64,000 nt of DNA from an uncultured Clostridia bacterium (lineage in GTDB: Bacteria; Bacillota; Clostridia; Christensenellales; Borkfalkiaceae), in contig CANRKK010000008.1 in assembly GCA_947631195.1 (NCBI GenBank), forward strand, positions 1,052 through 65,051, in the 5' to 3' direction. Positions 26,941 through 48,847 of the stretch are shown one piece after another. A model generated the notes under the pieces. The model did no database searches, was not told the origin of the DNA, and was given only the letters and a program-made list of their open reading frames with translations. Within the stretch, counting starts at the first letter, position 1, and each line of letters begins with the position of its first letter. Position numbers and translations under genes: made by a program.

Positions 26941-26972
26941 AAGCGGCGCAACCGTGAACGGTTGCGCCGCTT
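26941..26972. terminator. Terminator hairpin closing the 11-gene cluster (also downstream of the convergent araC-family gene)
   Basis: 14-bp stem aagcggcgcaaccg/cggttgcgccgctt with 4-nt loop. On the minus-strand transcript it is followed by AAAUAUUUUUUAUUUUA. Confidence 0.7.
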
Positions 26973-26997: not shown

Positions 26998-27330
26998 TCA
27001 ATAAAGTTTTTTAAGGATATCCCTGTAAGTGCCGTCGTCCGTCTCGATCAAAAAGTTTTTGCCGCTCTTTAACTGGAAAGAAACAAGCATGCGGCTCTTG
27101 GAATGGGCGCTCAGGCCGCCCCAAAGACCGCCCAAGCCCAATTTTGAAAACAACAAGCCCTTGGCCGCCATTCTCGTGCCGCTCGTATGCGTGCGGGAAT
27201 CCAGCACCTCTATGTTCACCACGTCGTCGCGCACGATATGTATGGTGTCGTTGCCCTTTTTGAGCCGCACACCCTTGAATTCCACTGTGAGGTGATATCC
27301 GACATAATCTCCGCCAACTACTTTTGTCAT
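26998..27330 (-). CDS. Hypothetical 110-aa protein, last gene of the cluster
   Basis: Co-directional, 21 nt after the preceding stop. Contains a Gly-zipper-like stretch KGLLFSKLGLGGLWGGLSA. No family recognised. Confidence 0.5.
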   Translation of the reverse strand: MTKVVGGDYVGYHLTVEFKGVRLKKGNDTIHIVRDDVVNIEVLDSRTHTSGTRMAAKGLLFSKLGLGGLWGGLSAHSKSRMLVSFQLKSGKNFLIETDDGTYRDILKKLY

Positions 27331-27351
27331 AAAATTATTTTTCCTTTAAAC

Positions 27352-28491
27352 TTATTCGATTTTGACCGTCAACGTCTCGCCGCATATCTCCACGGAGATC
27401 TGCCCGCCCATCGCCAGCTTCTGCATAACCATCTTGACGGCGTTCATGGCCATCTTCATCTTTTCTTCCGCCGAAGAGCCCACGCACAGCGCAAACTGCA
27501 TCTCTCTTTTGCCCTTTTTAAGCTCCTCCTCGATAAAGCCCCTCAGCTCGTACAGGCTGTTCAGCCTCTTCAGGTTGCCGCCCGCCTGCGGTGCGGTTTG
27601 CCTCTGCGCGGGCTGCGGTTGGGGTTGGGGAGCGGGCCTGCCGTAAGGACGGGGTTGGGGTTGAGCCGTGTTTTGGCTCCCGTAAGGGCGGGGTTGAGCC
27701 GTGTTTTGGCCGCCGTAGGGGCGGGGGCGGACGGGCTGCGTCTGCCGCGAGTCCCGACTTTCCTCCTCACCCCACGTTTGTGTGCATGCGGGGAAGTGCG
27801 GCCTGTTCCACGCGTGGCTTGCAAGCATCTGGTCGTCCGTACGGTTGAAGTAGCGTTTGTCTACAAAACTGCGCGTAGGATTGGAGCCCAATATGCTCGT
27901 TGCGTCGAGATGATAATTTTTGCCCTTTATCTCTATGATATTCCATGCGTGCGGGCCGCCGCCCGACAGCTTTATGGAGCCGTCCACAAAGATGCACTTT
28001 ATATTGTTGCAGTCGCACAGATACTTTACGGCCCTGGCTATGCCCGAACACTGCGCCTTTTTGAAGTAGAGCGCCGACGCCGCGTTCTGGTTGTAAGTTA
28101 TGTCTATCTCGTAGACGGTGTTCTTTACAATCAGTTCGACGATATTGATTTCCGTCTGTTCGTCGTCAGCTCCCCTCACCTTTGAGGCCGCGGCTTCGAG
28201 GGCCGCCTGTATGGTCCGTATTTCGCCGTCGGAGTACAAGTTACGGAGCATCAACGCTATGCACGCCCCGCGGAAAGACCGCGTCATTTGCGCGGAGATG
28301 CGGCAATCCATCCAAAAAAGTTCGGAATGGTCGCAGTACACGGCGTTGTAAGCCGCGCTGAGGTCGTCGGGGTCGGTCAAATTTAAGTTGACAGAAGTCT
28401 TTTGTTTTTTGACCGCCTCAACTATTTCATCGTAGGCTGCGCCGAGCCGCCTGTCGAGTTTGCCGCGGTGATACTCATAAATATAAGCCAT
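27352..28491 (-). CDS. Transglutaminase-like (papain-fold Cys-His-Asp) protein with Pro/Gln-rich tandem-repeat linker and a small C-terminal domain
   Basis: 379 aa. Putative triad KKAQCSGIARAV (Cys148), GGGPHAWNII (His181), NYHLDATS (Asp196). Linker RPRPYGGQNTAQPRPYGSQNTAQPQPRPYGRPAPQPQPQP. Confidence 0.65.
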   Translation of the reverse strand: MAYIYEYHRGKLDRRLGAAYDEIVEAVKKQKTSVNLNLTDPDDLSAAYNAVYCDHSELFWMDCRISAQMTRSFRGACIALMLRNLYSDGEIRTIQAALEAAASKVRGADDEQTEINIVELIVKNTVYEIDITYNQNAASALYFKKAQCSGIARAVKYLCDCNNIKCIFVDGSIKLSGGGPHAWNIIEIKGKNYHLDATSILGSNPTRSFVDKRYFNRTDDQMLASHAWNRPHFPACTQTWGEEESRDSRQTQPVRPRPYGGQNTAQPRPYGSQNTAQPQPRPYGRPAPQPQPQPAQRQTAPQAGGNLKRLNSLYELRGFIEEELKKGKREMQFALCVGSSAEEKMKMAMNAVKMVMQKLAMGGQISVEICGETLTVKIE

Positions 28492-28500
28492 TGCTTATCC

Positions 28501-29979
28501 TTAAACCTTGAACTTGAGCGAAGGACAATTTTTGCCGATGAGCCACAGCACGCTGTCCTCTACCCTTACGGGCGTGAACTGCTTGCCGTTTTGGTTGTGG
28601 CCCAAAGGAGCGCAGGTGAAGAACCGCACGTCGGTAAACTTCTGCTTCAAGACGTGCACGAAGTTTGTTTCGCCGTAGTCCAAAAGGAACTTTTCGCACA
28701 CGGCGTTCGTTGCCTTTACCGCGTCCGCGCCCTTGTTGGAATTCATGTAGTTCGTAACCGCCGCGGGGCCTATCTTATCCTCCAAACCGGGGATATCCAG
28801 CTTGGTGAACACTACCGCGCACACCTTTTTGACCCGCGCGCCGTTTTTGTGCAGCATGTTGTCGAGGGTGCCCAAAAGCATCGTGGTCACCTCGTCCATC
28901 GGCATATCGCTCGCGCCGTAGCTGTAGGGATCAAAGGAAGGATCCTGCGCCAGCTCGTCGCGGTAGTCCTGAATGGAGAGAGGGTCGAGCACCACTATAA
29001 ATCCGTCGGCCTGCGTCAGACCTATCTGGGCAAGGTCGGTGTCGCTTGTGAAGATTTCGCCCGGCATATCGCACAGGGAAATAAAGTTGCCCACGTTGCC
29101 CTTGGGGGGATTTAAGTTGAACTGATAGTACTTCATCTGCATGTTGCTTGCAGAAGCGTCCGTCTTGGGGGGCGTATAGCCCTGCTCTATCGCGCTCATG
29201 TTGGTTTCATACAGGTCCTCGCGGTTGTCCGAAACGTTGGGCTTGTATGTAAATTCAAGATTATATTGGGGGGCTACGTTCTTCTCTATTTGGGAAATAG
29301 CCATGGTTATAAGGCAGGTTTTACCCGAAGAAGGGCCGCCGATTACGGGCACCCAAACCTCAACGTGCGCGCCCGCGTCCGAAAGGGGAGCGCCGCAGTG
29401 GGGGCAGAGGCCGTCCAACTTTTGTCTGCCGTTCAAGAAAGTGGTGGGCAGTTTTTCGCCGCACTCACATTCGCGCTTCAATATACCGTATTTGCTGGGT
29501 ATAAGGCGGGAATGTTCCACCCCGCAGGAGGGGCAGACATATACGGGCAAATCAAATTTGTGCTGGCACGCTGGGCAGCCGCTGGATATCTTCTTTATCT
29601 TTCTGTACAGCCAGTCGAGGAAGTTCACAAAGGTAAAGAAAAGATAGATAAAGAACATCGTGAGGGTCATCACAATGATGTAGAGCAGCGAGAATACGGC
29701 GCATATAGCGGGCGTAAACACTACGTTCAGCAATAATATGGCCAAAGACCAGCCGAACAGTACGGCTCGGAACAGCGAGCGGAAAAAGCCTGAAATGGGA
29801 GCTTCGAAGGTGATTATGTCGAGCACGCCGTCCTTTAATTCACCCGCGTTGTCCACAAACTTTTCCCAATAGTCGCCCATGCGGTCGAGCCACTTTTCGA
29901 ATACGTTTTTGATTACGGCTCCGCATTCCTTGTACACGTCGCCGAAAAAGTAATTCACTTGTGCAGGTTGTGTTTTCAT
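28501..29979 (-). CDS. Membrane-anchored zinc-ribbon P-loop GTPase (paralogue of 34390..35508)
   Basis: 492 aa. TM segments at about aa 65-120. Cys clusters CPACQHKFDLPVYVCPSCG and CECGEK..LCPHCG. G1 GGPSSGKT, G3 DMPGE, G4-like FTKLD. Confidence 0.7.
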   Translation of the reverse strand: MKTQPAQVNYFFGDVYKECGAVIKNVFEKWLDRMGDYWEKFVDNAGELKDGVLDIITFEAPISGFFRSLFRAVLFGWSLAILLLNVVFTPAICAVFSLLYIIVMTLTMFFIYLFFTFVNFLDWLYRKIKKISSGCPACQHKFDLPVYVCPSCGVEHSRLIPSKYGILKRECECGEKLPTTFLNGRQKLDGLCPHCGAPLSDAGAHVEVWVPVIGGPSSGKTCLITMAISQIEKNVAPQYNLEFTYKPNVSDNREDLYETNMSAIEQGYTPPKTDASASNMQMKYYQFNLNPPKGNVGNFISLCDMPGEIFTSDTDLAQIGLTQADGFIVVLDPLSIQDYRDELAQDPSFDPYSYGASDMPMDEVTTMLLGTLDNMLHKNGARVKKVCAVVFTKLDIPGLEDKIGPAAVTNYMNSNKGADAVKATNAVCEKFLLDYGETNFVHVLKQKFTDVRFFTCAPLGHNQNGKQFTPVRVEDSVLWLIGKNCPSLKFKV

Positions 29980-29989
29980 TTATTTCACC

Positions 29990-30259
29990 TCACGCTATGG
30001 CGCCCGCAACCCCGAAGATAATGGGGAAGCTGACAATTGCCGCTATCGGCAATATCGCAATTATGATAACTGCTGCGATGGTAAAGCCCTTTGCAAACGG
30101 ATTGGTGACTTCTTCCTTTACCGAGTTGATGTAGCTGATAGTTGCGCGGAAATACATGAACACCAATCCCGCAACGGCACCGACTGCCATTATCACCAAC
30201 AGAGTAGCAAGGAAAAATATCATAAACACAATGAATAATACAATTCCCAATACTAACAC
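29990..30259 (-). CDS. Small integral membrane protein (3 predicted TM helices)
   Basis: 89 aa, almost entirely hydrophobic (MLVLGIVLFIVFMIFFLATLLVIMAVGAVAGLVFMYF..). 10-nt spacer to the next gene. Confidence 0.55.
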   Translation of the reverse strand: MLVLGIVLFIVFMIFFLATLLVIMAVGAVAGLVFMYFRATISYINSVKEEVTNPFAKGFTIAAVIIIAILPIAAIVSFPIIFGVAGAIA

Positions 30260-30272
30260 GCTGCTACCTCGC

Positions 30273-31745
30273 TTATTTTATGAATTTCTTGCGTATGAAG
30301 AAGTAAACGGGCAGAAGCACGAGCATAATTACGCCGAGCGCTATGTTGTTGTTGGTAAAGCCCACGATGGCCAGCGCAATCAGTATGAGGTACGGGATAA
30401 GGCTGATTCTCCTCTTCAGTCTGCTCCAACGGCTTCCGCCTCTCCTGCCGCTTCTGCCGCCGCTCTTTGCGTTTCTCTCCGCCTTGCTCTGGCTTGCGCC
30501 GCCGCCCTGCGCAACGTTGTCGTCCTCGCTGAACTGTCCGAAAGGATTGTCTACAAAGTAATCAACTTCGCCGCTGTACGCGTTTACCCTTACGGTTACG
30601 CTCTTCTTGCCGCCCATGGATACCGTGAAGAAATAGAAGGGCACGAACACGTAGGAAAGTTCCTTTATGTCGGAAGCCTTGTCGTTATAGATGATCTCTA
30701 TGTATTTGGTATCCCAGTTCTTGGCCTTGTGGAAGGCTTCCTTTATCTCCTGTCTTGCGCCCTCGGTGGCATCCTTGGAGGAGAGCTCGATTGCCCTCTC
30801 TATAACGGCCTTTTGGCCAACGGGATGAATACGTACCCTGCCGTCCACATAGTTGCTTGTAAAGGTTGCGTTCTTGTAAACTTTCCACAGATCGCGCTGC
30901 GTCTGCTTGGTTTTGAAGGTTGCGCAGTAGTTGGTCCAGTACATATCTACTGTATAGTCCGTGCTGCCGCTGGAAACGGTGCTGTAGCTCGGGTTGTCGT
31001 ACTTATATCTTACGTTGGGGGTGCCCACTTCAACCGCGCACTTTACTATGGGCTGATATTCGAGCTGGGCCTGGGGCGCGCCCTTTAACAGCTTGCTGAT
31101 CTGCGCGTAGGTCAAAATCTTTTTGGTGGCCTTTTCCTCGAGGTTGGCCTTGGCTATAGACCACGCCTCCTCTGCCGACCTGTTGCAGGGCACGAAGGTG
31201 CTCGACTTGCCGTCGGAGGTGTTCTTTTGCCAGATATCCATCTCCGTCTTGCCGGTAAACACGCCGCGCTCCCTGCCTATGGAAGCATAGGTTTCGTCGG
31301 GCATGTATTCGCTGCCGAGGAATGCCGCCATATCGAAGCTGTCGTGTATCTCTTTCGTCTTTTCGGGATAGCCCTTCTGGAGCAGCACGCCGTAGAAGTA
31401 GTAGCTTTCGGCGTCAAACTTGTCGTGATAAGCAAACGCCTTGTCTGCGGCCGTCTGTGCAAACGTAGGGTCCTTTTTGTTCTTTGCAACGAGCTTTGTG
31501 AGAACGAAGAGATAGTCCTCTACCGCGTCCTGATCGGAGAGCGTGCCCGCTTCGTAGTAAGGAAGGGATTCGGCGTACTTGCCCTTTTCCACCCACAGAT
31601 ATTCGCCCCACTCTTCGCGGGCTTTCTGGTTACCGGCGTCAGCCGCTTCCTTGAGCTTTGCATAGCCCTTTTTGGGATTTTTGGGGAAACCGTTGGTCCC
31701 GTTTAAGAGGTTTTGCGCTTCTTGGTAAAGTTGATTTGCGTCCAT
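30273..31745 (-). CDS. Sel1/TPR-like repeat protein with C-terminal Arg/Gly-rich segment and two TM helices
   Basis: 490 aa. N-terminal helical repeats (..GYAKLKEAADAGNQKAREEWGEYLWVEKGKYAESLPYYEAG..). C-terminus ..GGRSGRRGGSRWSRLKRRISLIPYLILIALAIVGF..LGVIMLVLLPVYFFI. Confidence 0.6.
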   Translation of the reverse strand: MDANQLYQEAQNLLNGTNGFPKNPKKGYAKLKEAADAGNQKAREEWGEYLWVEKGKYAESLPYYEAGTLSDQDAVEDYLFVLTKLVAKNKKDPTFAQTAADKAFAYHDKFDAESYYFYGVLLQKGYPEKTKEIHDSFDMAAFLGSEYMPDETYASIGRERGVFTGKTEMDIWQKNTSDGKSSTFVPCNRSAEEAWSIAKANLEEKATKKILTYAQISKLLKGAPQAQLEYQPIVKCAVEVGTPNVRYKYDNPSYSTVSSGSTDYTVDMYWTNYCATFKTKQTQRDLWKVYKNATFTSNYVDGRVRIHPVGQKAVIERAIELSSKDATEGARQEIKEAFHKAKNWDTKYIEIIYNDKASDIKELSYVFVPFYFFTVSMGGKKSVTVRVNAYSGEVDYFVDNPFGQFSEDDNVAQGGGASQSKAERNAKSGGRSGRRGGSRWSRLKRRISLIPYLILIALAIVGFTNNNIALGVIMLVLLPVYFFIRKKFIK

Positions 31746-31763
31746 AATAAATAACTCCTGATA

Positions 31764-34379
31764 TTAATTTTTCCAAACTTTGTTTTTGACCGAGAAATCG
31801 AGATAGGCCTTGGCCTGCGATTTCAGCTTGTTGTTCCCCGAAAGTTGTTTTGCGAGTTTTTTGGTCTTGCCTCCGCCCAACTCGGTAAAATACACTCCGA
31901 GGAAAGTTTTTATTTCGTTGAGGTCGGTGCGGTTCACGAGATAGATGAGGTAGTCCGCCGCCTCTTTGAAATTGATTTTTGAGGCAAATTTCTTTGCCAT
32001 GTCCTGTATGAACGGGTTGTTTACGCCCACGTAGCCCGCCGCCCTTGCAAGGGGCGCGAACGCATTGTCCAAAACGTTGTCCACTTCGTCGGGCCGCTTT
32101 GTCACCATGCGGCAATACAGGTCGAATATTTCGTCGGTGTAAACCCTTGCAATCACCTTGTTGCCGTTGTCGTCGGCAAGCAGCATATTGTTTGCCAAAA
32201 GGCGGCAGACCTCGTCGAATATCGCGTTTTCGTTCCTTACGCCCAAGGCCTGGTGCAGCTTGTTGCCCAAATCCACCACCTTGTACGCCGCGGGATATTC
32301 GCCCGCCGTCGCGCGGTATTTTTCGGCGAAGTTGTCGATATCGGCGATCAGCCCCTTGTTTCTGCCCTTATACAGGTCCATCAAATCGCCCGTGTGCGCG
32401 CCGCCGAACACCGAGCAGATTATGTCGTATGCGCGCGCGCCGTCGCGGCCGGGCATGGAATATGCGCCGAAGTATGCGTTCCACGCGAGGGCCTGTTCGG
32501 CAAGCCTCTCGTAGTTGTGCTTCAGGCTGTCAAAATACTCCTCTAAAGCCTTGAGGAAGGTGCCGTTGGTATCCTTGCCCTTCAGATACACGTTTGTATA
32601 GTACTTTTTGAGGTCGGCCTCGGTGTGCGGTCTGTCTGCAAAGGTGTATGCAAACATGTCGTCTATAAAGTTCTGCACGGCGGGGTCGTTGCCCGAGAGC
32701 GCCGCAAGGCCGTTTATATCCAGATTCTTTTTGTTGGAATAGGCGAGGAACTTGTTTTTGAACACGGGATCGGACCCGCAGTTCTTGATGAGAATAATCA
32801 CGCCCTTGTTGCAGTCCTGCGGAGAAATTTCGTCCAGCACGGACAGAACGTAGTCGTAGTCCCTTATATTGAGCGCGCCGTTGGGCGAGGCGAGGTCGTC
32901 TATAACCACCCTGTCGAGCAGTGCGGAGCCCGTCTTTTGCTTGGTTATCGCGTTAAGTTCGCGCACGGGCTTGAGAATTTTGGCCTGCAGCCTGTCGAGG
33001 AAGTAGGCCTCCACCACCTTGACATCGCCCGCGGGAAGGGCCTCGGCGCACATTCTCGCAACGAAGTACTTTACAAATTCGTTGGACCTGTTGGCCGAGA
33101 GATAGCCCCTGAGCGAGCCGTGTTTGCCCGTTATGTAGGTCAGGATATCCTGCGCGGGGAACACCATCTTGCCGCAGAACTCCGTATAGCGCGAATCGAA
33201 CAGCGACGGATCGGTTGCGCCGCAGGCCTCCACCGCCGCAAGATAGCCCGAAAGCACATACTCGCGCGAGGAGATGTCGTTCTCGTACATATAACCGTAG
33301 AATCTTGCGTTTTCGAGCACGTCGAAGTTGCGCGCCCGCTCAAACGCGGCAAGAACGGAGGTGACGGAAGTTTTGTCGCCGCCGTTTGCAAGCACGCGCT
33401 CTGCCACGGACATGAGCTCCTCAGAGGAAGCGAAAACCGCCAGATCGGCATTGAAAAAGGAATTGAGGGTGAGGGCGTAGTCGGGGTCGTTGCCCGCAAG
33501 CGCGAGATATGCGTCTATCTTCGCAGCTTCGGCGCGGGCGGAGTCCACGGACCGCGCAAGAGCGTTCGCCACGTTCTCTACATACCTGCCCACCGTCACC
33601 TTGTTGTTGATAATCTTTTCTTTTATGCTGTAGACGAGGTCGCCCGCAAGCATCGCCGTTCTGTAATTTACTACGCCGCCCGGCTTTAACGCCTGCAGGA
33701 CGAAGCTGTTGGACTTGCTTATGGAATAGGTGGAAAAAGTGACCTTATCCAGCACGGCGGCGGGCAGACACTTTGCCACCCCCTCAAACCAATACACGAG
33801 CGGGGAAGGATCGTCGTAGATATATACCGTCTTGTTGGTCCTTATGCCCTCCAGCACGGCCGCAACCAGATACTTTAAAATCTGCAACCTTTCGGGATTG
33901 TTGAAAAACGCCGAGAGCGAAGCGTTGTCTACGGGCTGCGCCTGCGCGGGAACCTCAACTTCGGGAAGGGGCGGGGGATTGCTGTCCGCGTTGGCCTCCT
34001 CGTCCGTAAGTCCCGTCTTGAAAATAGGGCTGCCGATATAGTCAAACGCGTTGAAGTCGGGCTTTTGGTCAAGCACAAAGGCGTGTATTATGTAATTGCC
34101 CTGCCTGCCGCTGTAGTCCCTGCCTATATATGTGGACTGGCCCAGACAATACATGCCCGAGGGCAATCTGAAGAACGCGCAGCCGCGGGGGAACATTGTT
34201 TCTATCTGTTCGGGCGTGGGCGCATAGGGCAAACCCGCGGGCGGCAGGTATTTTAACGCCGTCTGGATGGCTGCCGAATCGTCGGCGGAAATCCCCGCGC
34301 TCATGGAATATACCATAAAGCCCTTCGATGGGGAGTTTCCGTTTTTCCAGGACGTATAAATAAACTGTTTTGCCTTCAT
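31764..34379 (-). CDS. Large uncharacterised protein; N-terminus resembles the GAP1-N (GTPase-associated protein 1) domain
   Basis: 871 aa. N-terminus KQFIYTSWKNG..KGFMVYSMSAGIS..YIGRDYSGRQGNYIIHAFVL, followed by a long helical region. Lies between the two GTPase genes. The GAP1 assignment is from memory of the family pattern and has not been searched. Confidence 0.55.
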   Translation of the reverse strand: MKAKQFIYTSWKNGNSPSKGFMVYSMSAGISADDSAAIQTALKYLPPAGLPYAPTPEQIETMFPRGCAFFRLPSGMYCLGQSTYIGRDYSGRQGNYIIHAFVLDQKPDFNAFDYIGSPIFKTGLTDEEANADSNPPPLPEVEVPAQAQPVDNASLSAFFNNPERLQILKYLVAAVLEGIRTNKTVYIYDDPSPLVYWFEGVAKCLPAAVLDKVTFSTYSISKSNSFVLQALKPGGVVNYRTAMLAGDLVYSIKEKIINNKVTVGRYVENVANALARSVDSARAEAAKIDAYLALAGNDPDYALTLNSFFNADLAVFASSEELMSVAERVLANGGDKTSVTSVLAAFERARNFDVLENARFYGYMYENDISSREYVLSGYLAAVEACGATDPSLFDSRYTEFCGKMVFPAQDILTYITGKHGSLRGYLSANRSNEFVKYFVARMCAEALPAGDVKVVEAYFLDRLQAKILKPVRELNAITKQKTGSALLDRVVIDDLASPNGALNIRDYDYVLSVLDEISPQDCNKGVIILIKNCGSDPVFKNKFLAYSNKKNLDINGLAALSGNDPAVQNFIDDMFAYTFADRPHTEADLKKYYTNVYLKGKDTNGTFLKALEEYFDSLKHNYERLAEQALAWNAYFGAYSMPGRDGARAYDIICSVFGGAHTGDLMDLYKGRNKGLIADIDNFAEKYRATAGEYPAAYKVVDLGNKLHQALGVRNENAIFDEVCRLLANNMLLADDNGNKVIARVYTDEIFDLYCRMVTKRPDEVDNVLDNAFAPLARAAGYVGVNNPFIQDMAKKFASKINFKEAADYLIYLVNRTDLNEIKTFLGVYFTELGGGKTKKLAKQLSGNNKLKSQAKAYLDFSVKNKVWKN

Positions 34380-34389
34380 AGTACTCCTT

Positions 34390-35508: not shown

Positions 35509-35526
35509 ATATCTCTCTCCTTTGAA

Positions 35527-38500
35527 TTATAAATTTATTACTTCTTTCATCTGGACGTTGGCGGCCGCGCCGTCCGCTATGAACATGGCAAGTTTGAACA
35601 TCTTGCCCATAGGCGGCACTTTTACCGTCGCCTTGCCCACGTATTTGCCGTGGGAGAACATGCCCTTTTTGAGCTGTACTCCGCTGACTCTCTCCACCAT
35701 CTCGCCCACGTTTTTGTTGAGCGGGCGGGGGTTGCCCTTGACCAAAACGAAGTCGGGCAAATCCACCTCGGCGTCGGCCTCGAACTTGATTGTCACCGCA
35801 AAGGGTTTGGCGGGCGAAGGCTCGTATTCCAAAGCATACTTTACTATCTGCTTTTTTCTGTAGTCGATGGGGTCGGGCAGCTGCACGGGCGCGCACATGG
35901 CTATCTCCGAGCTGGAGACCCCCTTTATCTTGCCGAACAGCGTCACGTACGACACCGTGTCGGCGCGGAGCTTGAGCGATATCTCCCCGTCCCTCTTCAA
36001 TTTGTCTGCGGGGAAGTTGAACGTGTCGCCGGGGCGGTCGGGCGCGTCGGCAAACTCCTTGTTGCTCACGTGCACCACGAGCTCGGTTATAACGCTGTCG
36101 AGCGAACAGGTAATTTTGAGCGTGCCGTTGTCCTCGGTGTACTTAACGTTGCTTATGCCCTTTATCGAGGACATAAACACGGGGTCGGAGGCGTTGAACA
36201 GCTGCTCGTTGACGTTTACCGCGTACACGTATCCCGTGAAGTTTGCGGGCAGGCTGAACCCGTAGGCGCCGTTGCCGTTGTCATAGGCGGACAGAAGTTT
36301 TGCGTTCCCCTTGTTTTTGGAGAACACCTCTATCTTTTCCACCTTTTTGAGGGGTATGGGCAACCTTTCGGGCGAACACCAGAACTGCGCGTTCTTCTCT
36401 ATGTTTTTGCCCGTCGCCTCGCACACGCCGCCCGGCAGCTGGCCCACCTTTAATCCCTCTACGGCCTTGGGGAAGTAGAAGGGCTTGAAGAACATCTGTA
36501 TGCCCGAAGAAAATACTTCCTTGCCGTCTATATCGTACACGCACCTGACAAAATAGCTGTTGCCGGCCGCGTCGCAGCCGCCGTCCTCGAACCCGTCGGC
36601 GTTCGCGCCGTGGAAGGCCGCGCCGTTTTCGGCGGGAGCGGAGCCCGCCGCCTTCAATACGTCTATTCTCTTTACGTTGGAGGGGCTGCTCCACTTCACG
36701 TGGATCTTGCCCTCGGTCATCTCCTGCTTGTAGTTGGAGACGTTCAAAAGCACCACCACGGGGCTGTTGCAGGCAACCACCGCCGTCTGCACGCCGAATC
36801 TTTCGGCAAACACGCCGTAGTAGTAGTTGACGGCCGCGCCGGGGTTGTTGTCCTCAAAATAGTTGATTGTAAGCCCCTTTACCATTGGCGTGCCGTCTGC
36901 GGGGCTCTTGGGAACGGAGCCCGCCTTTCTCACCACCGTGTAGCTTATCATTCCGTCGGCCTTGCCGTCCCACTGAACGTTCACCTTGCCGTCGTCGGTG
37001 ACGCGGCAGCGCACGTTTTGCGGGGCCTGCGGGGGATATTTTTTGATCAGCTGCTGTGCCTCGAGGTTGTCGGCACATTCCTCCAAAGCCTTGGCCGCAA
37101 AGTTGATAATCTGCCCCACGTCCTGCGTTCTTTTAGCCGATTCGAGATATTGCGCCGACTTGGAAAGCCCCGCCTTTATCTTGTTTTTATAGGACTCTAT
37201 GTCGTCGGCGTTGTAGCCGGGCAGCGCGGTCGCTATCTCGCGCACCTTTGCCTCGGCCTTGTTGAGCTGTTTTATGACTATGAGTTTATCCACCTCGGCA
37301 ATCATCTCGCGGTATTGCTTCAGCATGGATTCTTCGGCCTTTTCCTTGGTGGCCACTTCCTTGTCGTAGAAAGCTATCTTTTTGGCCACTTCGGAGGTGG
37401 GCATCTTTTCATATCCGGGCACCGTGCTCTTTAAATTGTTGAGCGCCGTCTTTAAAGTGGGGAGGGGCGTCCTCGGGTTTTTGAACAGATTGCCCAGCTC
37501 GTTCACCTGTTTCTGGAAAACGGGCTGCATTTTGTCCGTCATGGAGCACTTGGGGCACACGCGCGCGCCCGCCCCGTAGCGGATAGGGTTCTGGCAGTTC
37601 CAGCAGAGCACGGTGAGCGGTTTGCCGCAATGGGGGCAGACCGTTATGTTTTGCGTAACTATGTAGGGCTTGCCGCAATCGGGGTAGGGGCAGAGCTCTA
37701 TCTGCATCTTTGCGCCTATGGAAGCGTCGCTCGACAACTTTAAGTTGAGGGCGTTGAGCATCGCGCCTAAATCTTCCTCGGCGACCTCCAACGAGCAGCC
37801 CGTATTTTTTACTATTAATTCAAAGTATTTGAGGTATTCCTCCGCGCGGATAACCACTATGCCGTTATCGCTGCGCGCCTTGAGGGGGAAGTACACGGCG
37901 TCCTTTATCTGCAGGTACTTCTGGTACTGCGCCCTGCCGGGTTTGCCGCTGTTGCCCTCCTCCTTGAATATCGTCTCCGCACAGCCGTACAGCTGTTTCA
38001 AAGAGGGGCCCACGCCCTTCTTGAGCGAAGTTTTGGCGGCGTCCCTCTGCATGTACGACTTCAGCCGGTCCTGTATCGTTTTGAGGTCGGCGGTAATGGG
38101 CAAGTCAAGCAAATCGTAAAGGTTTGTGATTTTGCTGTCGCCGAGGCCCTTTAAATATTTTTCTATTTCGTTATACGTATGGAAGTCGAACCTGTTCTGG
38201 GTGTCGTCCACATACTTTACGCCCTTTGTGAGCAGGTTTTTGAGGCCGGCCTCTATCTCGTCCACCGACATCTTGTTCTTGTCGGCAACCTGCCTGACTT
38301 CGCTCTTATATATGATTCCGCGCTCGCACAGGCTGACGAGGAACTGGATTATCGGCTCCATCTTCAGTTTTTTATAGAGAGCCGCCTCCCTCGCCCTGCC
38401 GCCGCTGTTGGGCCTGTATGTGCCCGAGCTTTCGTCGTAGGTGGAGTCGTTAGCCAAAACCTCTATGGCGTCCTTTTTCAAATCCTTGCCGAGGCGCACC

Positions 38501-38658
38501 GAAACGGGGTCGTCGCTGTTCGCCTTGGTGTTGCACAGATTGTTTATTTTAGACGCTATAACCTTGGGGTCGGTCTCGTTTAAATCGATTTTGAAGGCGT
38601 TGTAGTAGTTAAAACCGATATCCGCCAATTCTTCGGGTGTACGAACGTTAGATGCCAT
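35527..38658 (-). CDS. 1043-aa multidomain protein: degenerate J-like segment, double zinc ribbon, coiled coil, C-terminal Fn3/Ig-like beta-sandwich array
   Basis: aa 178-250 NLYDLLDLPITADLKTIQDRLKSY..GRAQYQKYL resembles J-domain helices, but no HPD motif is visible. aa 323-371 CPYPDCGK..CPHCGK..CWNCQ..CPKC. aa about 545 onward PPQAPQNVRCRVTDDGKVNVQWDG..ISYTVVRK is Fn3-like. Confidence 0.6.
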   Translation of the reverse strand: MASNVRTPEELADIGFNYYNAFKIDLNETDPKVIASKINNLCNTKANSDDPVSVRLGKDLKKDAIEVLANDSTYDESSGTYRPNSGGRAREAALYKKLKMEPIIQFLVSLCERGIIYKSEVRQVADKNKMSVDEIEAGLKNLLTKGVKYVDDTQNRFDFHTYNEIEKYLKGLGDSKITNLYDLLDLPITADLKTIQDRLKSYMQRDAAKTSLKKGVGPSLKQLYGCAETIFKEEGNSGKPGRAQYQKYLQIKDAVYFPLKARSDNGIVVIRAEEYLKYFELIVKNTGCSLEVAEEDLGAMLNALNLKLSSDASIGAKMQIELCPYPDCGKPYIVTQNITVCPHCGKPLTVLCWNCQNPIRYGAGARVCPKCSMTDKMQPVFQKQVNELGNLFKNPRTPLPTLKTALNNLKSTVPGYEKMPTSEVAKKIAFYDKEVATKEKAEESMLKQYREMIAEVDKLIVIKQLNKAEAKVREIATALPGYNADDIESYKNKIKAGLSKSAQYLESAKRTQDVGQIINFAAKALEECADNLEAQQLIKKYPPQAPQNVRCRVTDDGKVNVQWDGKADGMISYTVVRKAGSVPKSPADGTPMVKGLTINYFEDNNPGAAVNYYYGVFAERFGVQTAVVACNSPVVVLLNVSNYKQEMTEGKIHVKWSSPSNVKRIDVLKAAGSAPAENGAAFHGANADGFEDGGCDAAGNSYFVRCVYDIDGKEVFSSGIQMFFKPFYFPKAVEGLKVGQLPGGVCEATGKNIEKNAQFWCSPERLPIPLKKVEKIEVFSKNKGNAKLLSAYDNGNGAYGFSLPANFTGYVYAVNVNEQLFNASDPVFMSSIKGISNVKYTEDNGTLKITCSLDSVITELVVHVSNKEFADAPDRPGDTFNFPADKLKRDGEISLKLRADTVSYVTLFGKIKGVSSSEIAMCAPVQLPDPIDYRKKQIVKYALEYEPSPAKPFAVTIKFEADAEVDLPDFVLVKGNPRPLNKNVGEMVERVSGVQLKKGMFSHGKYVGKATVKVPPMGKMFKLAMFIADGAAANVQMKEVINL

Positions 38659-38673
38659 AACTATACTCCAAAA

Positions 38674-40731
38674 TTAAATTTCCTTTGCTATATTTCCCGC
38701 TATATCGCCAAACGCTTTGGCAAGATTGTTTATGTCTATCATCTGCGCGCAGCCGGGGGAGGCTATGCGGCTGAGGAAGTCGTAGTCCGCGTCGCCCACG
38801 CCAACCGCGTATATGAGCACGCCGTCCGACTTGAGCTCCTCCGCCTCGCGGATGGCGACGTCCGACTTTTCCCAGCAGCCGTCCGTGAGGACTATCGCCG
38901 CCTTTATAGTGTTGCCGCCGCTGAACTCCCTGCCGTACTTTTTAAACAGCCGCTCGCCGTTGGTGCCGTAGCCGCAAACGCCGTCCACCTGCACCTTCTT
39001 TATGGCGCGCTGCACCGCGCTGTACTTGTTTGTTATCCCGCACACAAGCTCGTTGGTCTTTGCAAACCGCACGATGCCCACCGACGTGTTTGAAAAATCG
39101 CAGGTGGATATAAACCGCTCCATCGCGCGCTGGGCCTCCTCTATGGGCCCGTCGTCCATACTGCCCGACACGTCCACTATCAAGAGTGCCTCTATCTTGC
39201 GGTTCTTCATCTCTTCGCGCTCGGCCTTGAGGCGGGCTATAATCTCGTCGAGGCTCTCGGAGAGCTTTTCCTGTATCACTTTGAGCGCCCTGCCCGAGCT
39301 GTCCTTTGCGGTGACTTCCACTATGCCGTTCTGGTTGTAGAGGAAGGACACCGAGAACACGTTCTTCTGCCCGCTCACAAGTCCCGTAACCGTGTATTTG
39401 TAGAGCAGCGAGCACTCGAAGGGGTCCTCCGTTTCGCCCTGCAGCACGTACACTTCGCAGCGGTCGCTCCGCACCTCGTACTTTTTGTCCTTGGCCACGC
39501 CTATCTTGCTGTTTTTGGCAAGTATTATACTGTTTATGTAGTCCGTTTCGCTGTCGTTTAAGGTGAGCATGCCGAGGCTGTGCGCCGTGATGTCCTCTAT
39601 GTCGGCGCCGCGTATCGTCAGTCCTCCCCTCGCGCCCGCGGCGGCAGCCCCGCCGAGGGTGAGCGAGCTGGCCGTGCAGAGTTCAGCCTGCATCGCCGCG
39701 CCCGAAGCTACAATCGTGTCCACGTTGATGTTTTTGGTCACGGGTTCCTTGCCGTAGGACTTGACTATCATGTTTTTGACCTGCGGCATTCTCGTGGACC
39801 CGCCGACGAGCACCACCTCGTCTATATTCTTCCAGCCGAAGCCGGGAATGGTCTTGCGCAGGTCCGCAAAGCACTTGTCTATAAGCATCGTCGTCTGGTT
39901 CAAAAGGCTGAGGGTCTTTTCCTCAAACTCCTGCCGCGTGATGGTGTACTTTCCCACGAAGCCGCTGCACCGCACCACTACCGTAGTTTCGCTCATGGCG
40001 GTCAGCTTTTTCTTGGCTTCCTCGCACTGGACCTGAAGTTCGGCCGCCTCCTCGGGCATGCCGTTTATATCTATGTTGTATTCTTCTTCGAATTTGTTTG
40101 CAAAGTAATTGAACAGTATGCTGTCCCAGTTTTTGCCGCCGAGCGTATGGTCGCCGTTCGTAGTCAGAACCTTGACGTGCGTGCCGTCTATCGCGGCTAT
40201 CGTAACGTCGAACGTTCCGCCGCCCAAATCGTAGACCATGGCGTTCTTTTTGCCCTGCCCCGTTAGGCCGTAGGCTATTATCGCCGCCGTCGGCTCGTTT
40301 ATAATTTTCAGCACGTTGAAGCCCGCGCGCTTGCCGGCGTTCAAAGTTGCCGTGCGCCTCGGCTCGTCGAAGTAGGCGGGCACCGTTATTACCGCACCGT
40401 CTATCTTTACGCCGTTTGCGCTCTCTATGTCCCTCTTGAGTTCACGGAGGAAAAGTGCAGAGATGTCCTCTGCACTGTATTCTTTGCCGTCGATGTAGAA
40501 GGAATAATCCTCCCCCATCATATTCTTATAAAAAGCCACGCTGTTGCAGTTGCCCTGCGACATCATATTTTTGGCTTCGTTGCCTATGTAAACTCTTCCG
40601 TCTTCGACGCAGGTGACCGAGGGGGTTATCTTTTCGTCCTCGCCGTTCTTTAAAACGACTACTTCCCCCAACTTTTTATCGAAGTAAGCAACCGCAGAAT
40701 AGGTTGTTCCCAAATCAATTCCAACGTTCAT
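38674..40731 (-). CDS. Hsp70-family ATPase fused to a C-terminal von Willebrand A (vWA) domain
   Basis: 685 aa. Hsp70 NBD motifs VGIDLGTTYSAVA, YDLGGGTFDV, LVGGSTRMPQV, and an SBD-beta-like segment. Then LLIVDVSGSMDDGPIEEAQ (MIDAS DxSGS) ..IVLTDG..IYAVGVG, which is a vWA fold signature. Confidence 0.85.
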   Translation of the reverse strand: MNVGIDLGTTYSAVAYFDKKLGEVVVLKNGEDEKITPSVTCVEDGRVYIGNEAKNMMSQGNCNSVAFYKNMMGEDYSFYIDGKEYSAEDISALFLRELKRDIESANGVKIDGAVITVPAYFDEPRRTATLNAGKRAGFNVLKIINEPTAAIIAYGLTGQGKKNAMVYDLGGGTFDVTIAAIDGTHVKVLTTNGDHTLGGKNWDSILFNYFANKFEEEYNIDINGMPEEAAELQVQCEEAKKKLTAMSETTVVVRCSGFVGKYTITRQEFEEKTLSLLNQTTMLIDKCFADLRKTIPGFGWKNIDEVVLVGGSTRMPQVKNMIVKSYGKEPVTKNINVDTIVASGAAMQAELCTASSLTLGGAAAAGARGGLTIRGADIEDITAHSLGMLTLNDSETDYINSIILAKNSKIGVAKDKKYEVRSDRCEVYVLQGETEDPFECSLLYKYTVTGLVSGQKNVFSVSFLYNQNGIVEVTAKDSSGRALKVIQEKLSESLDEIIARLKAEREEMKNRKIEALLIVDVSGSMDDGPIEEAQRAMERFISTCDFSNTSVGIVRFAKTNELVCGITNKYSAVQRAIKKVQVDGVCGYGTNGERLFKKYGREFSGGNTIKAAIVLTDGCWEKSDVAIREAEELKSDGVLIYAVGVGDADYDFLSRIASPGCAQMIDINNLAKAFGDIAGNIAKEI

Positions 40732-40871
40732 ATCTGTTCCCGGATACCGCCCCTTGCGGGCGCCATCTTATATATTTGTATATATTATTTGCGAATACTA
40801 TTCGCTTTTTTATGCGGAACGGCCGCCCAAGGAGTTTCCTCCCCGGGCGCGTTCCGTAGTTTTCAGTTATT

Positions 40872-42473
40872 TTACTGTTGCAGCTTGAGCGAGCTCTCCA
40901 TGCCCACCATGTTGGTGTCGTTGCCCAGACGAACGGGAGTAACTTTCTGCTTGGGACCGCCGTTTACCGAAAGTTCTACTTCCAGCGTGCCGTCCTGGTC
41001 CATTACGAAGGTAACCTCCAAAGGAGTGCCCTTGGGTACGGGGTTGGGGAACTGTATGGTGGAGTCCTCATACATCTTGGTGCCCTCTTCCTCGGGGCAG
41101 CTCTCCTCGACGCTGTTGTTCTCGAGTATCTCGATGAGCGCCGCGCTCTGGTTGTTGACGCTTGCCGAGAAGTTGCGGCTTACGGCGCAGGGCTTTTCGG
41201 TATCCTTGAGGATTATGTTGCTCAGAATTCTCTGGTTGTTTTCGTCGTACGCGATGAGGCCGTAGCTCTTGGTGCACTTTACCTTAACCACGAAGTCTCT
41301 GCCCTGGGGATCGGTGAACTCCGTCGCGCCGCCCAAAGAGAGTTCGGACGAACCGCCGCCCGCAGAGGAGCCGCTGCCGTCGCTCGTCTTGGTGGTCGCA
41401 TAGTTTGCAAAACTTGCCATAAGGGCCGCGCCCATCGCAACTGCCTTGTCGGGCTCAAACGAGGAGATGGGCTTGCCGTATTCGGCCTCGAGACGGGCCT
41501 TTACCTGAGGCATTCTGGTGGAACCGCCGACGAGGATTATCTCGTCTATGTCGTTCATGCTCATGTTCTTCGCGTTGAGCATGTTGTCAATGAGGCTTAT
41601 CGTCTGGTTGAGTTTGCTCTCGGTTATCTCGTCAAACTTCTCCCTCGTGATTTCGATTCTCTCTTTCTGGCCGTCGTAGTTTACGGTCATGGTCGCGCTC
41701 TCCTTGGAGGTGAGGAGCTTCTTGGTCTTTTCGGTGTTCTCGCTGAACATCTGGATACATTCGGGATCGCACGCCATTTCGTCGGGGTCGCAGCCCGTTC
41801 TGCTGCAGAATTCCTGCGTGATGTATTCGGTCAGTTTAGCGTCCCAGTCCTTGCCGCCGAGCAGGTGGTCGCCGCCCGTGGTTATAACTTCCATCTCGCG
41901 CTTGTCGCCGACGAAGTTCAGCTTCATGACCGTGCTGTCGAACGTGCCGCCGCCGAGGTCGTAGATAAGGATGGTCTTGTTCATGTCCTCCTGCTTGGAA
42001 TAGCCGTACGCCAGCGCGGCCGCCGTGGGCTCGTCGAGTATCTGCAACACGTTCAGGCCCGCCTTTTCCGCCGCAAGCCTCGTCGCCGCTCTCGCGTGGT
42101 CGCCGAAGTATGCGGGGCAGGTAACTATCGCGCCGTCGATGTCGTCGCCCAACTTATCCTTTGCGTCTCTCACGAGCTTCTCGAGAATGTATCTCGATAT
42201 AGCCGCGGGGGAATAGTCCGTGCCGTCAACGTTGAGGGTGTAGTCGGGGTCGCCCATGTAGTTCTTTACGCGCTCAACTATACATTCGGGCTGCAAACCG
42301 CCCTCCTGCCGAGCCGTGGAACCAACCACCACTTCGCCGCCGCTGATAAATACAACCGACGGGGTTGTCTGCTCCCCCTCAGAGTTGTCTATTATCTGCA
42401 CTCTGCCCGTCTCGTCAACGTACGCTACGCACGAATACGTTGTTCCCAAGTCAATGCCTATCTTCTTTCCCAT
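40872..42473 (-). CDS. Hsp70-family ATPase lacking the helical lid
   Basis: 533 aa. IGIDLGTTYSCVA, YDLGGGTFDS, LVGGSTRMPQV. C-terminal SBD-beta-like region of about 150 aa ending ..PLEVTFVMDQDGTLEVELS.. with no lid or EEVD tail. Confidence 0.85.
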   Translation of the reverse strand: MGKKIGIDLGTTYSCVAYVDETGRVQIIDNSEGEQTTPSVVFISGGEVVVGSTARQEGGLQPECIVERVKNYMGDPDYTLNVDGTDYSPAAISRYILEKLVRDAKDKLGDDIDGAIVTCPAYFGDHARAATRLAAEKAGLNVLQILDEPTAAALAYGYSKQEDMNKTILIYDLGGGTFDSTVMKLNFVGDKREMEVITTGGDHLLGGKDWDAKLTEYITQEFCSRTGCDPDEMACDPECIQMFSENTEKTKKLLTSKESATMTVNYDGQKERIEITREKFDEITESKLNQTISLIDNMLNAKNMSMNDIDEIILVGGSTRMPQVKARLEAEYGKPISSFEPDKAVAMGAALMASFANYATTKTSDGSGSSAGGGSSELSLGGATEFTDPQGRDFVVKVKCTKSYGLIAYDENNQRILSNIILKDTEKPCAVSRNFSASVNNQSAALIEILENNSVEESCPEEEGTKMYEDSTIQFPNPVPKGTPLEVTFVMDQDGTLEVELSVNGGPKQKVTPVRLGNDTNMVGMESSLKLQQ

Positions 42474-42505
42474 AATTGTCTCCTTAAAAATTTATATAAT
42501 TTTTT

Positions 42506-43492
42506 TTATTTTTTGAATTTATACACTTCCGTTTTCTGCAGGAAAATCACTTTCCCCTCGAAAACGTATGCGTCGGTGAGTTTTGCCGCTATCTTTCTGT
42601 CGAGCGCGGGGTCGTCCGTCTCCACGGCCTTTAACAGCCTGTGCTGGGAGGTGTTGAACTCGTCGTCGGTAACCAGCACGTCGCAGCCCATAAGGGAGAG
42701 GGCCGCCTCCAATTCATTCACGGCGTGCGTCAAAATTTCGGCATAGAGTTGCTTTGCGTCCCCTTCGCCGTCCACAGACCCGAGCTTGCCGCCGACATAC
42801 TCCTTTAACCCCTCCATCTTTTTGAGGACGGGATATATGTACAGCAACTTGTTGTCGGCGTCTATCGACCCGCTCGCCTTTGCAAGCGCAAGGCAGGCCG
42901 CGTCGAGCGTCTCGTTGTTTTTCAGCTCCTCCATTATCTCCGCGTGATAACGCCCGAGCAGTTCTTCGAGGGTGGGGGCGGGCGCTTCGGCCTGTTCCCC
43001 GCTCTCTGCGGCGGGCTCCTCTTCGGCTGCCGCCTCTCCGGGCGCGCTGTCGGTCACGGCAACTTCGCCGTCGGCAACTTCGGCGGGCTCCTCTTTTTCG
43101 CTCTGCCCGTATGTAAGGGGTTCCGAAAGGCTGTGCCCGTTGTAAACCCAGCCGCCGTCCTCCTCCGAAACGCCGTTTTGCAGCATCATCTCGGTGAAGT
43201 CCTCGAGAAGATATCCGAGGTTCTTTTTAACCTTTTCGGCGTCGTAGTCATACTTGGCCGTGTTGGCAAGATCCTTTTTCAAGTCCTCCCTGAACGCTAT
43301 GACGGCAAGCGCGAAGGGCTTGAACGCCCACGCGGTGAAGCCGTCGCGGTAGTGCTGCAGGTCCTTGCCGAGCTGGGCGATTATATCGTCCTTGGACTTG
43401 GTGTACCTCAATAGCTGTTTGATCTTGTTGAAGTACTCCTCTAAGAGCCGAGCCTCAACATTTTCGCCTGTTACGTTTTTTTCTTCTTCCAT
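42506..43492 (-). CDS. GrpE-like nucleotide-exchange-factor candidate with acidic low-complexity insert
   Basis: 328 aa, first gene of the cluster, GGAGG RBS. C-terminus ..DDEFNTSQHRLLKAVETDDPALDRKIAAKLTDAYVFEGKVIFLQKTEVYKF resembles the GrpE beta-domain (FDP..HeAv..GY..g.v.R.a.V.V). Acidic linker EKEEPAEVADGE..AAAEEEPAAESGEQAE. Confidence 0.5.
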   Translation of the reverse strand: MEEEKNVTGENVEARLLEEYFNKIKQLLRYTKSKDDIIAQLGKDLQHYRDGFTAWAFKPFALAVIAFREDLKKDLANTAKYDYDAEKVKKNLGYLLEDFTEMMLQNGVSEEDGGWVYNGHSLSEPLTYGQSEKEEPAEVADGEVAVTDSAPGEAAAEEEPAAESGEQAEAPAPTLEELLGRYHAEIMEELKNNETLDAACLALAKASGSIDADNKLLYIYPVLKKMEGLKEYVGGKLGSVDGEGDAKQLYAEILTHAVNELEAALSLMGCDVLVTDDEFNTSQHRLLKAVETDDPALDRKIAAKLTDAYVFEGKVIFLQKTEVYKFKK

Positions 43493-43804
43493 AAGACCTC
43501 CCGGGGTGATTTTGGCTTAGCGGCGGGGTTCCGCACACTATTATATACTTGCCGGCCGCGGGGACGAAACTTTAAAGTCCCCGTCATGCAACCGAAGTAT
43601 ATCAAACAAAGTGCTAAAAAAGTGCTAAAATAAGCCCCGCCGTCCGAAAAAATTTATAAATTTTTCGGCGTTTTATCGCGCGTTTTCGCTTATTTTTGGA
43701 ATTTATGCCCATTACGGGCATTTTTTTACAAAAAAACGCACCCCCCCCCCGCCGTTTTTTGCGAATGGGAGCGCTTTTGTACAAAATTGCCCTAAGGCTT
43801 TTTT

Positions 43805-43833
43805 ATTATATAATAAAACCCGCGCGTTGTCAA
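43805..43833 (-). promoter_or_regulatory. Consensus sigma-A-type promoter upstream of the Hsp70/GTPase cluster
   Basis: Minus strand TTGACA (43833-43828), 17-nt spacer, TATAAT (43810-43805). This would give a leader of about 300 nt before ATG 43492. Confidence 0.45.
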
Positions 43834-48827: not shown

Positions 48828-48847
48828 TTTATACCTGTATTGAAAAA

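Follow-up and report, generated by a model that had tools for sequence, protein, structure and literature searches.

What purpose is served by two Hsp70 proteins and a GrpE-like factor that are encoded side by side with GTPases, a GAP1 protein and a transglutaminase-like enzyme? This question is raised by a locus from an uncultured Clostridia bacterium (family Borkfalkiaceae; GenBank assembly GCA_947631195.1, contig CANRKK010000008.1), of which we analyzed a stretch of 64,000 nucleotides, in the following referred to as the window. The cluster comprises eleven genes, g1 to g11 in the order of transcription, all of them on the minus strand. The original prediction, which had been made from the sequence alone, placed eleven co-directional open reading frames (ORFs), with spacers of 9–32 nt and a single gap of 140 nt, between a consensus promoter (43805–43833) and a strong terminator (26941–26972), and saw a resemblance to the logic of NTP-dependent conflict systems that had been predicted computationally (Kaur, Burroughs, Iyer and Aravind, eLife 2020, PMC7159879). 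The layout, down to its coordinates, and the relationship were both borne out by our analysis. On balance, we favor the view, which appears rather probable, that the cluster encodes a conflict system of the GAP1-N2-type DO-GTPase kind and its HSP70/GrpE subtype, located on the chromosome and capable of horizontal transfer, and we infer that a role in conflict or defence is likely.

GTPases, GAP1 protein and conserved gene order

Kaur et al. (PMC7159879) defined the DO-GTPases, the domains GAP1-N1, GAP1-N2, GAP1-M and GAP1-C and the FNIII partner protein by computational prediction. The relationship of our cluster to these systems goes beyond resemblance because its proteins match the Pfam families that were built from that work, i.e., DO-GTPase2, GAP1-N2 and GAP1-M. 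The two GTPases, g5 (34390–35508, 372 aa) and g9 (28501–29979, 492 aa), reach 32.4 and 44.8 bits, respectively, against the DO-GTPase2 cutoff of 27 bits, they align with each other across the GTPase domain, and CxxC pairs in each of them are consistent with two zinc ribbons. The soluble g5 carries its ribbons at the N-terminus and contains the P-loop GAKASGKS (residues 90–97), the Walker B motif DTAGE (175–179) and the motif TKID (260–263); the corresponding motifs in g9 are GGPSSGKT (214–221), DMPGE (304–308) and TKLD (392–395). The glutamate of the Walker B motif, a hallmark of DO-GTPases, is present in both proteins and conserved in their orthologues. According to hydropathy analysis, g9 would start with a cytoplasmic N-terminal segment, a hydrophobic block (residues ~65–123) fits two to three helices, and there is no C-terminal transmembrane (TM) segment; the zinc ribbons and the GTPase domain follow the block. 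The gene for the GAP1 protein, g6 (31764–34379, 871 aa), starts 10 nt after g5, and its product matches GAP1-N2 with 90.3 bits (residues 3–136) and GAP1-M with 28.8 bits (residues ~166–219), the cutoff being 24 bits in both cases. The remainder of the protein beyond GAP1-M is helical and diverges fast.

Among the neighbourhoods of GAP1-N2 genes, the same paper describes a second theme (PMC7159879), which accounts for ~14% of the cases, occurs in actinobacteria and firmicutes and combines HSP70 and GrpE, at times with another HSP70 copy, and adds an FNIII protein that is fused to DnaJ or TPR. The FNIII protein is described there as a defining partner of GAP1-N2. The present cluster agrees with that theme in its two paralogous, zinc ribbon-containing TRAFAC GTPases with the Walker B glutamate, one of which is predicted to be membrane-anchored, in the position of the GAP1 gene (N2 plus M) directly downstream of a GTPase gene, in the FNIII protein with a DnaJ-type domain and in the combination of HSP70, GrpE and an additional HSP70. 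The coupling of Hsp70 and GrpE, which had looked new to the original prediction, was thus already part of the systems predicted in 2020, and the category as such is not new. There are also differences. The membrane GTPase g9 has a predicted N-terminal TM block and no C-terminal TM helix, and the text of Kaur et al. does not mention an Hsp70-vWA fusion, absence of the HPD motif, glycine-rich linkers or the g10/g11 pair. A subset of the theme has a second HSP70 without a peptide-binding domain, whereas g2 keeps a divergent beta-type substrate-binding domain (SBD-beta); as this feature is optional, membership still stands. What our analysis adds and what is worth recording is the clade-wide Hsp70-vWA fusion, the HPD-less J-like domain, the glycine-rich linkers, the split into core and accessory genes and a hot spot for cargo genes.

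Gene order provides a second line of evidence. Six firmicute-type loci from metagenomes or metagenome-assembled genomes (L001, L002, L019, L020, L022 and L023) have the same gene order, with identities to the window proteins of 33–72% for g4 and 23–50% for GAP1. Eight genes are invariant, i.e., those for the GrpE-like protein, the Hsp70, the Hsp70-vWA fusion, the scaffold with J-like, zinc-ribbon and FNIII regions, the soluble GTPase, the GAP1-N2 protein, the small TM protein and the TM-anchored GTPase. We also scanned GTDB representative genomes with patterns that match the window's own GAP1 exactly; all loci returned were actinobacterial and none was from a firmicute. In 12 of the 15 actinobacterial GAP1-N2 loci, the order is Hsp70, an FNIII protein of ~870 aa, GTPase, GAP1-N2 and TM-anchored GTPase. 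All three actinobacterial GrpE-like ORFs that we examined pass the Pfam cutoff for GrpE, and the single actinobacterial Hsp70 examined (534 aa) is lidless. With the same order in six firmicute-type loci and in 12 of 15 actinobacterial genomes, the cluster appears to be one functional unit. The eleven-gene unit of the original prediction, whose neighbourhood is conserved in this way, is better read as a conserved core of eight genes plus three genes that we now regard as accessory (g7, g10 and g11). The small membrane protein g8 (29990–30259, 89 aa) belongs to the core. It had been described as a three-TM protein, while hydropathy gives two to three TM segments, and in L001, L019, L022 and L023 the gene for its orthologue is flanked by those for GAP1 and the membrane GTPase. 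Directly upstream of the GrpE/Hsp70 genes, the actinobacterial locus L004 contains a gene for an SPFH/Band 7 membrane protein (1930–4116).

The GAP1-N2 family is large, with ~1,700 clusters at 50% identity. The close subfamily to which g6 belongs is rare and patchy, with seven relatives returned by a word-indexed search. In homologues that are ~50% identical overall, the first 100 residues of g6 are 86–96% identical and the rest 30–55%, compared with 72–82% for the other genes of the same locus pair. Between the window and L001, non-synonymous divergence amounts to 0.28–0.41 in the remainder of GAP1 and to 0.12–0.14 in the Hsp70s and GTPases, i.e., it differs approximately threefold, and only these relative non-synonymous rates are usable because synonymous sites are saturated (proportion of synonymous differences 0.73–0.91).

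Chaperone genes and their scaffold

The domain calls of the original prediction for the chaperone part stood, albeit on different grounds: both HSP70 domains and the VWA domain are recognized by Pfam, just as the two DO-GTPase2 and the GAP1-N2/M domains are, and for the GrpE-like and J-like assignments support comes from orthologues and from the comparison of profiles. For g1 (42506–43492, 328 aa), the window protein itself has no Pfam match. Three of its orthologues score 31.8, 31.2 and 29.8 bits and thus exceed the GrpE cutoff of 25.8 bits, and the C-terminal half of g1 aligns with the GrpE alignment in hhalign with a probability of 95.9% (E 6e-9). The protein is composed of a helical N-terminal domain of ~125 aa, an acidic low-complexity linker (~130–172) and the GrpE domain (~172–328), and orthologues and profile comparison support its assignment as a putative divergent GrpE-like nucleotide-exchange factor. 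The idea that g1 is a tandem or single-chain-dimer GrpE was rejected, as the hhalign probability was 0.6% for the N-terminal against the C-terminal half and 1.3% for the N-terminal half against GrpE. An AlphaFold2 (AF2) model of g1 from a seven-sequence alignment had a mean confidence (pLDDT) of 56, with less than 50 in the C-terminal domain, and Foldseek searches with this model were uninformative.

The products of g2 (40872–42473, 533 aa) and g3 (38674–40731, 685 aa) match Pfam HSP70 with 317 bits (residues 5–354) and 350 bits, respectively, and g3 additionally matches VWA with 57 bits (residues 517–660). Upon alignment with E. coli DnaK, which served as a ruler only, both proteins proved to contain all catalytic motifs and SBD-beta and to lack the alpha-helical lid, in accordance with the original prediction, and in both the VLLL linker is replaced by a stretch rich in glycine, serine and alanine. 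In g2, the motifs IDLGTT (7–12), DEPTAA (147–152) and DLGGGTFD (172–179) are intact, SBD-beta is divergent, and a Gly/Ser linker (363–376) stands in place of VLLL. In g3, the nucleotide-binding domain (NBD) and SBD-beta are followed by the vWA domain (~513–685), which occupies the position of the lid. Its metal ion-dependent adhesion site (MIDAS) consists of D520-x-S-x-S524, T590 and D617. Of seven orthologues, all retain DxSxS and D617, and five retain T590. The fusion was found in every firmicute-type locus. A separate vWA gene is located directly upstream of the GrpE/Hsp70 genes in the actinobacterial locus L016 (3437–4528), so the link between Hsp70 and vWA recurs as neighbourhood as well as fusion.

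The largest protein of the cluster, g4 (35527–38658, 1043 aa), has the makings of a scaffold. It is composed of an N-terminal helical region, a J-like domain (177–250), a double zinc ribbon (323–371; Pfam DZR, 21.8 bits), a coiled coil and FNIII/beta-sandwich repeats (~540–1043). Pfam does not recognize the J-like domain in the window protein. An AF2 model of residues 1–310, calculated from 26 homologues, reached a pLDDT of 88, and its sole compact Foldseek matches were J-domains (CbpA, Tid1, Ydj1 and Thermus thermophilus DnaJ) with target TM-scores of 0.64–0.68 and a probability of 0.91; the E value of ~2 for these matches is due to the multidomain nature of the query. In addition, hhalign comparison of residues 177–250 with four J-domain sequences gave probabilities of 94–96% (E 1e-8). 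The HPD motif is absent from all 26 homologues and also from the actinobacterial counterparts. We therefore call the domain J-like and do not regard it as a functional DnaJ J-domain, which agrees with the earlier statement that no DnaJ with HPD is encoded here. A second J-like unit at residues 1–90 was considered and rejected (hhalign probability 0.3%).

For the C-terminal half of g4, the indications are weak but consistent and point to rapidly evolving FNIII repeats: the profile of the g4 orthologues weakly matches an Fn3-like PDB chain (E 0.005) as well as FNIII domains of gp130 and titin, PF25833 Fn3 is recognized in the homologues P0167 and P0194 and faintly in the homologue from L019, and at non-synonymous sites this half evolves at about double the rate of the N-terminal half. 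The N-terminal ~300 aa including the J-like domain can be found independently. In L020, they form a stand-alone gene for 331 aa (8983–9975), and in L023 (6991–8976) they belong to a protein of 661 aa whose C-terminus differs. The module is thus duplicated in two (L020 and L023, not L022) of the three loci that have a third Hsp70, which fits a co-chaperone relationship.

Compared with the canonical DnaK-DnaJ-GrpE machinery, the cluster provides an actin-fold ATPase with all catalytic motifs, SBD-beta, a GrpE-type factor and a partner with J fold, but neither lid, hydrophobic linker and HPD nor the zinc finger and C-terminal domain that make up the client-binding body of DnaJ. HPD normally contacts the interface of NBD and linker. 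As HPD and hydrophobic linker are both missing family-wide, classical J-stimulated allostery is unlikely, and the one loss looks coupled to the other. The presence of a private GrpE, on the other hand, implies that real cycling between ATP and ADP is retained. A J fold without HPD that regulates or tethers Hsp70 and does not activate its ATPase is known from Pam16/Tim16; the likeness of the J-like domain of g4 to this protein is one of fold only, without sequence relationship and in a wholly different context.

Probable conflict function and alternative explanations

Several features of the relatives are typical of conflict systems or fit their surroundings. L022 abuts a phage-type integrase gene, a resolvase gene is located upstream in L019, and L001 adjoins a PhdYeFM/PIN pair. 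Directly downstream of the operon in L019 (15721–18668), genes that match two PADLOC candidates, PDC-S72 with 46 bits and PDC-S27 with 600 bits, indicate a defence-island context. A cargo hot spot exists where the two Hsp70 genes meet, a place that is taken up in the window by the 140-nt gap (40732–40871). It harbours a DUF1292 gene in L002, a third Hsp70 gene in L020, a gene for an NBD-only Hsp70 (329 aa) plus a 113-aa gene in L023 and, in L022, a polymorphic-toxin cassette (5254–6419) encoding a nuclease of the Tox-HNH-HHH type (146 bits) along with SUKH-2 (Syd) as immunity protein, accompanied by another NBD-only Hsp70 (369 aa). DUF1292 cargo is present in L019 as well as L002. L022 furthermore contains a gene for a TraG/VirD4-like ATPase (13735–15078; PADLOC mad8-like, 60 bits). 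The contrast between the constant GAP1-N2 domain and its fast-evolving remainder, the faster divergence of the FNIII part of g4, the rare and patchy occurrence of the subfamily and a PD-T4-9-like toxin–antitoxin–chaperone module at 3 kb from the window operon point in the same direction.

Other observations weigh against a conflict function. Ten of the eleven proteins did not match any model of PADLOC-DB v2, and the remaining hit, on the coiled coil of g4, was a marginal ZorA-like one (E 0.003). GAP1 copies on phage, plasmid or viral contigs were not found. The cluster is flanked by ordinary genes (AraC, MatE and histidine phosphatase) without an integrase. The fast divergence of GAP1 could reflect relaxed constraint. 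The roles of sensor, switch and effector are assigned by domain logic and by the reasoning of Kaur et al. Finally, a number of features are compatible with a function at the membrane or envelope, i.e., the TM proteins, the SPFH/Band 7 gene next to the operon in L004 and a weak match to PepSY in g7, and a comparative-genomics paper on PSP (PMC11237479) states in one sentence that DO-GTPases are predicted to act in membrane stress.

These last points lead to the strongest alternative, a machine for envelope stress, membrane remodelling or surface assembly with a housekeeping or developmental function rather than one in immunity. In such a machine, g9, g8 and g7 would sense or repair damage to membrane or wall, the Hsp70s would fold or extract a client, for example, the beta-sandwich protein, and g10 would act on wall or coat proteins. 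The membrane association of several components, the link to membrane stress drawn in the PSP paper, the neighbour in L004, the PepSY-like match, the lack of a PADLOC match and the ordinary flanks in the window all speak in favor of it, and so does the fact that Kaur et al. (PMC7159879) noted a membrane-proximal role and wall-binding domains in related systems. Housekeeping machinery of the envelope is, however, not expected to be distributed in such a patchy manner among deeply diverged relatives, to adjoin integrase or resolvase genes (L022 and L019) or to enclose genes for a toxin nuclease and its immunity protein (L022), and the variation of accessory genes among otherwise syntenic loci as well as the combination of a constant GAP1-N2 domain with a fast-evolving remainder would be atypical. 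We consider this explanation rather unlikely.

Far less probable is that two unrelated modules, a Hsp70/GrpE cassette (g1–g4) and a DO-GTPase/GAP1 cassette (g5–g11), merely happen to be adjacent. The gap of 140 nt and the insertions within the cluster could be taken as signs of such a composition, as could L022, where four additional genes lie between those for scaffold and GTPase, and the GAP1-N2 loci L003 and L006, which contain no Hsp70 gene in the examined stretch. Yet both halves are found together, and in unchanged order, in two phyla at 25–30% identity, the spacers at the junction measure 10–18 nt, one consensus promoter and one strong terminator frame the whole cluster, and the FNIII protein, a defining partner of GAP1-N2 (PMC7159879), here carries the Hsp70-related J-like domain. 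A variant of the housekeeping dnaK/grpE heat-shock operon can practically be dismissed, as the original prediction had done, because the Hsp70s, despite scoring 317–350 bits against DnaK-type models, remain at 327 bits with a cutoff of 648 bits for the DnaK equivalog model, have no lids, are accompanied by no DnaJ with HPD and are embedded with GTPases and GAP1, and because HrcA is not encoded among the cluster ORFs or in the immediate flanks (CIRCE was not searched for).

If the cluster is a conflict system as we favor, its mode of action may be pictured as follows. A membrane-proximal GTP switch would be made up of the two GTPases and GAP1-N2/M, and recognition of an invader or a perturbation could fall to surfaces in the variable GAP1 region and in the FNIII repeats. 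The state of the switch would be relayed via g4, whose J-like domain would tether the Hsp70s instead of stimulating them in the classical manner. The Hsp70s, cycled by their own GrpE, might then capture or remodel target peptides using SBD-beta and the vWA MIDAS, or they might form a higher-order complex. Output or adaptor modules would be exchangeable, g10, g11 and g7 taking this place in the window and the HNH toxin with its immunity protein in L022. A bolder version of this model is less probable: an immune device with chaperones as working parts, in which GTPase and GAP1 license the lidless Hsp70s on the J-like/FNIII scaffold, private GrpE recycles them, invader or key host proteins are seized via SBD-beta and MIDAS and then unfolded, sequestered or polymerised upon, and transglutaminase-type cross-linking or proteolysis is an optional second blow. 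If true, this would be an anti-phage mechanism by ATP-driven capture of proteins and not by cleavage of nucleic acids, depletion of NAD or membrane pores.

Comparison with other predicted systems sharpens the picture. The theme that is most frequent among GAP1-N2 neighbourhoods (~52%) involves tubulins, and Kaur et al. (PMC7159879) called the themes non-overlapping. It shares with our cluster the core of GTPase, GAP1 and FNIII protein, vWA proteins and a variable NTP-driven partner that forms or remodels polymers, but homologues of tubulin stand where Hsp70/GrpE is found here, and Pfam scans of the eleven window proteins returned no match to the tubulin family. The ternary MoxR-vWA systems (VMAP, iSTAND; Kaur et al.) likewise combine an NTPase with a MIDAS-containing vWA co-factor and a third component that is part constant and part variable, and thresholded deployment of effectors is the logic proposed for them and would also apply to the present system. 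In contrast to them, vWA is fused to Hsp70 here, and Pfam detects no AAA+/MoxR domain in any of the eleven proteins. In type III CoCoNuTs (Bell et al., eLife 2024, PMC11090510), Hsp70-like NBD/SBD units are fused to or encoded with McrB-type GTPases. A non-housekeeping Hsp70-like module together with a GTPase in a predicted defence operon is common to both, and vWA (TerY-like) genes are often found near CoCoNuTs. The GTPase is, however, a TRAFAC DO-GTPase in our case and of the McrB AAA+ type in CoCoNuTs, the ATPase motifs of the Hsp70-like proteins are degenerate there and intact here, and CoCoNuTs have no GAP1, GrpE or FNIII scaffold.

As stated in the original prediction, we are not aware of any experimentally characterized system with such a set of genes. 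Our literature search found no experimental work on DO-GTPase/GAP1 systems; the papers found were computational or mentioned them in passing, and besides Kaur et al. the DO-GTPase family was named only in the PSP paper (PMC11237479). The locus is a good candidate for cloning and mutagenesis because it is compact, has a clean promoter and terminator and retains every predicted catalytic site, namely the P-loops of both GTPases, the ATPase sites of both Hsp70s, the MIDAS motif of the vWA domain and a Cys-His-Asp triad. It could be used to test whether bacteria employ dedicated Hsp70 machines in conflict or envelope surveillance and, of general interest for the mechanism of chaperones, how Hsp70 acts without a lid, a hydrophobic linker and an HPD-containing J-domain.

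Operon boundaries, accessory genes and surroundings

The sigma-70-type promoter (TTGACA-17 nt-TATAAT; 43833–43805) matches the consensus in 12 of 12 positions and is located 312 nt upstream of the start codon of g1. It is the sole perfect match in the region, with promoter-like sites overall not being enriched (11 observed, 10.7 expected). A terminator-like hairpin (43869–43852) ends the upstream gene for the histidine phosphatase, and the cluster therefore seems to be transcribed as a single unit that begins with a leader of 312 nt. Its end is marked by an intrinsic terminator (26972–26941) with a 14-bp stem that contains ten GC pairs and is followed by a T-rich tail. An Rfam scan of operon, leader and 140-nt gap did not reveal anything near threshold, and flanking direct repeats convincing as att sites were not found. 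An AT-rich near-palindrome (AAAAATTTATA[A/T]AATTTTT) occurs both in the leader (43647–43665) and in the 32-nt spacer before g2 (42486–42504) and could be an operator or just AT-rich context of ribosome-binding sites.

Among the accessory genes, g7 (30273–31745, 490 aa) encodes a protein whose N-terminus resembles helical repeats and whose middle part is rich in beta structure; at the C-terminus it has TM segments (~443–489), which were assigned by hydropathy and confirm the TM anchor proposed earlier. Its designation as a Sel1/TPR protein, in contrast, is weakly supported, given that Pfam finds no Sel1 and TPR_8 is detected in a single orthologue with E 0.013. The PepSY match of g7 has an E value of 4e-4. 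Only L023 has a g7 orthologue (43% identity) at the matching position; L001, L019 and L022 lack one.

The product of g10 (27352–28491, 379 aa) is a predicted transglutaminase-like thiol enzyme, as had been proposed. An NCBIfam model related to transglutaminase matches it with E 3.8e-17, its Pfam Transglut_core score of 20.5 bits lies below the cutoff of 23 bits, orthologues reach 25.9 and 33.8 bits, and the triad Cys148/His181/Asp196 is invariant in three orthologues. A Pro/Gln-rich repeat linker (residues 249–305) connects to a small C-terminal domain. Within g10, a 33-nt tandem repeat (27657–27722) is present in two copies that are 91% identical and encode PRPYG(G/S)QNTAQ linker units; the linker may be a contingency or length-variable region because its length differs in two orthologues. 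The last gene, g11 (26998–27330, 110 aa), yielded no family match in profile scans. Orthologues are found in L001 (80% identity) and L023 (49% identity), in each case directly behind the transglutaminase gene, such that g10 and g11 occur as a pair in the window, L001 and L023; g10 is absent from L019.

At a distance of 3 kb from the operon, a patch of low GC content (0.47) contains a module resembling toxin–antitoxin–chaperone systems (23186–24184, minus strand). It comprises genes for a HigB/RelE-like protein (23969–24184, 71 aa), an HTH_3 protein (23602–23979, 125 aa) and a SecB-like protein (23186–23602, 138 aa), the latter matching the PADLOC model PD-T4-9_C with 62.8 bits. The outer parts of the window (1–20500 and 47500–64000) look like ordinary chromosome. 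They contain a cluster for the utilisation of maltodextrin and pullulan, with two type I pullulanases, 4-alpha-glucanotransferase and a MalF-like permease, genes for a type IV pilus or type II secretion system (GspE/PilB with a c-di-GMP-binding N-terminus, and PilC/GspF) and also genes for hybrid histidine kinases and a response-regulator diguanylate cyclase.

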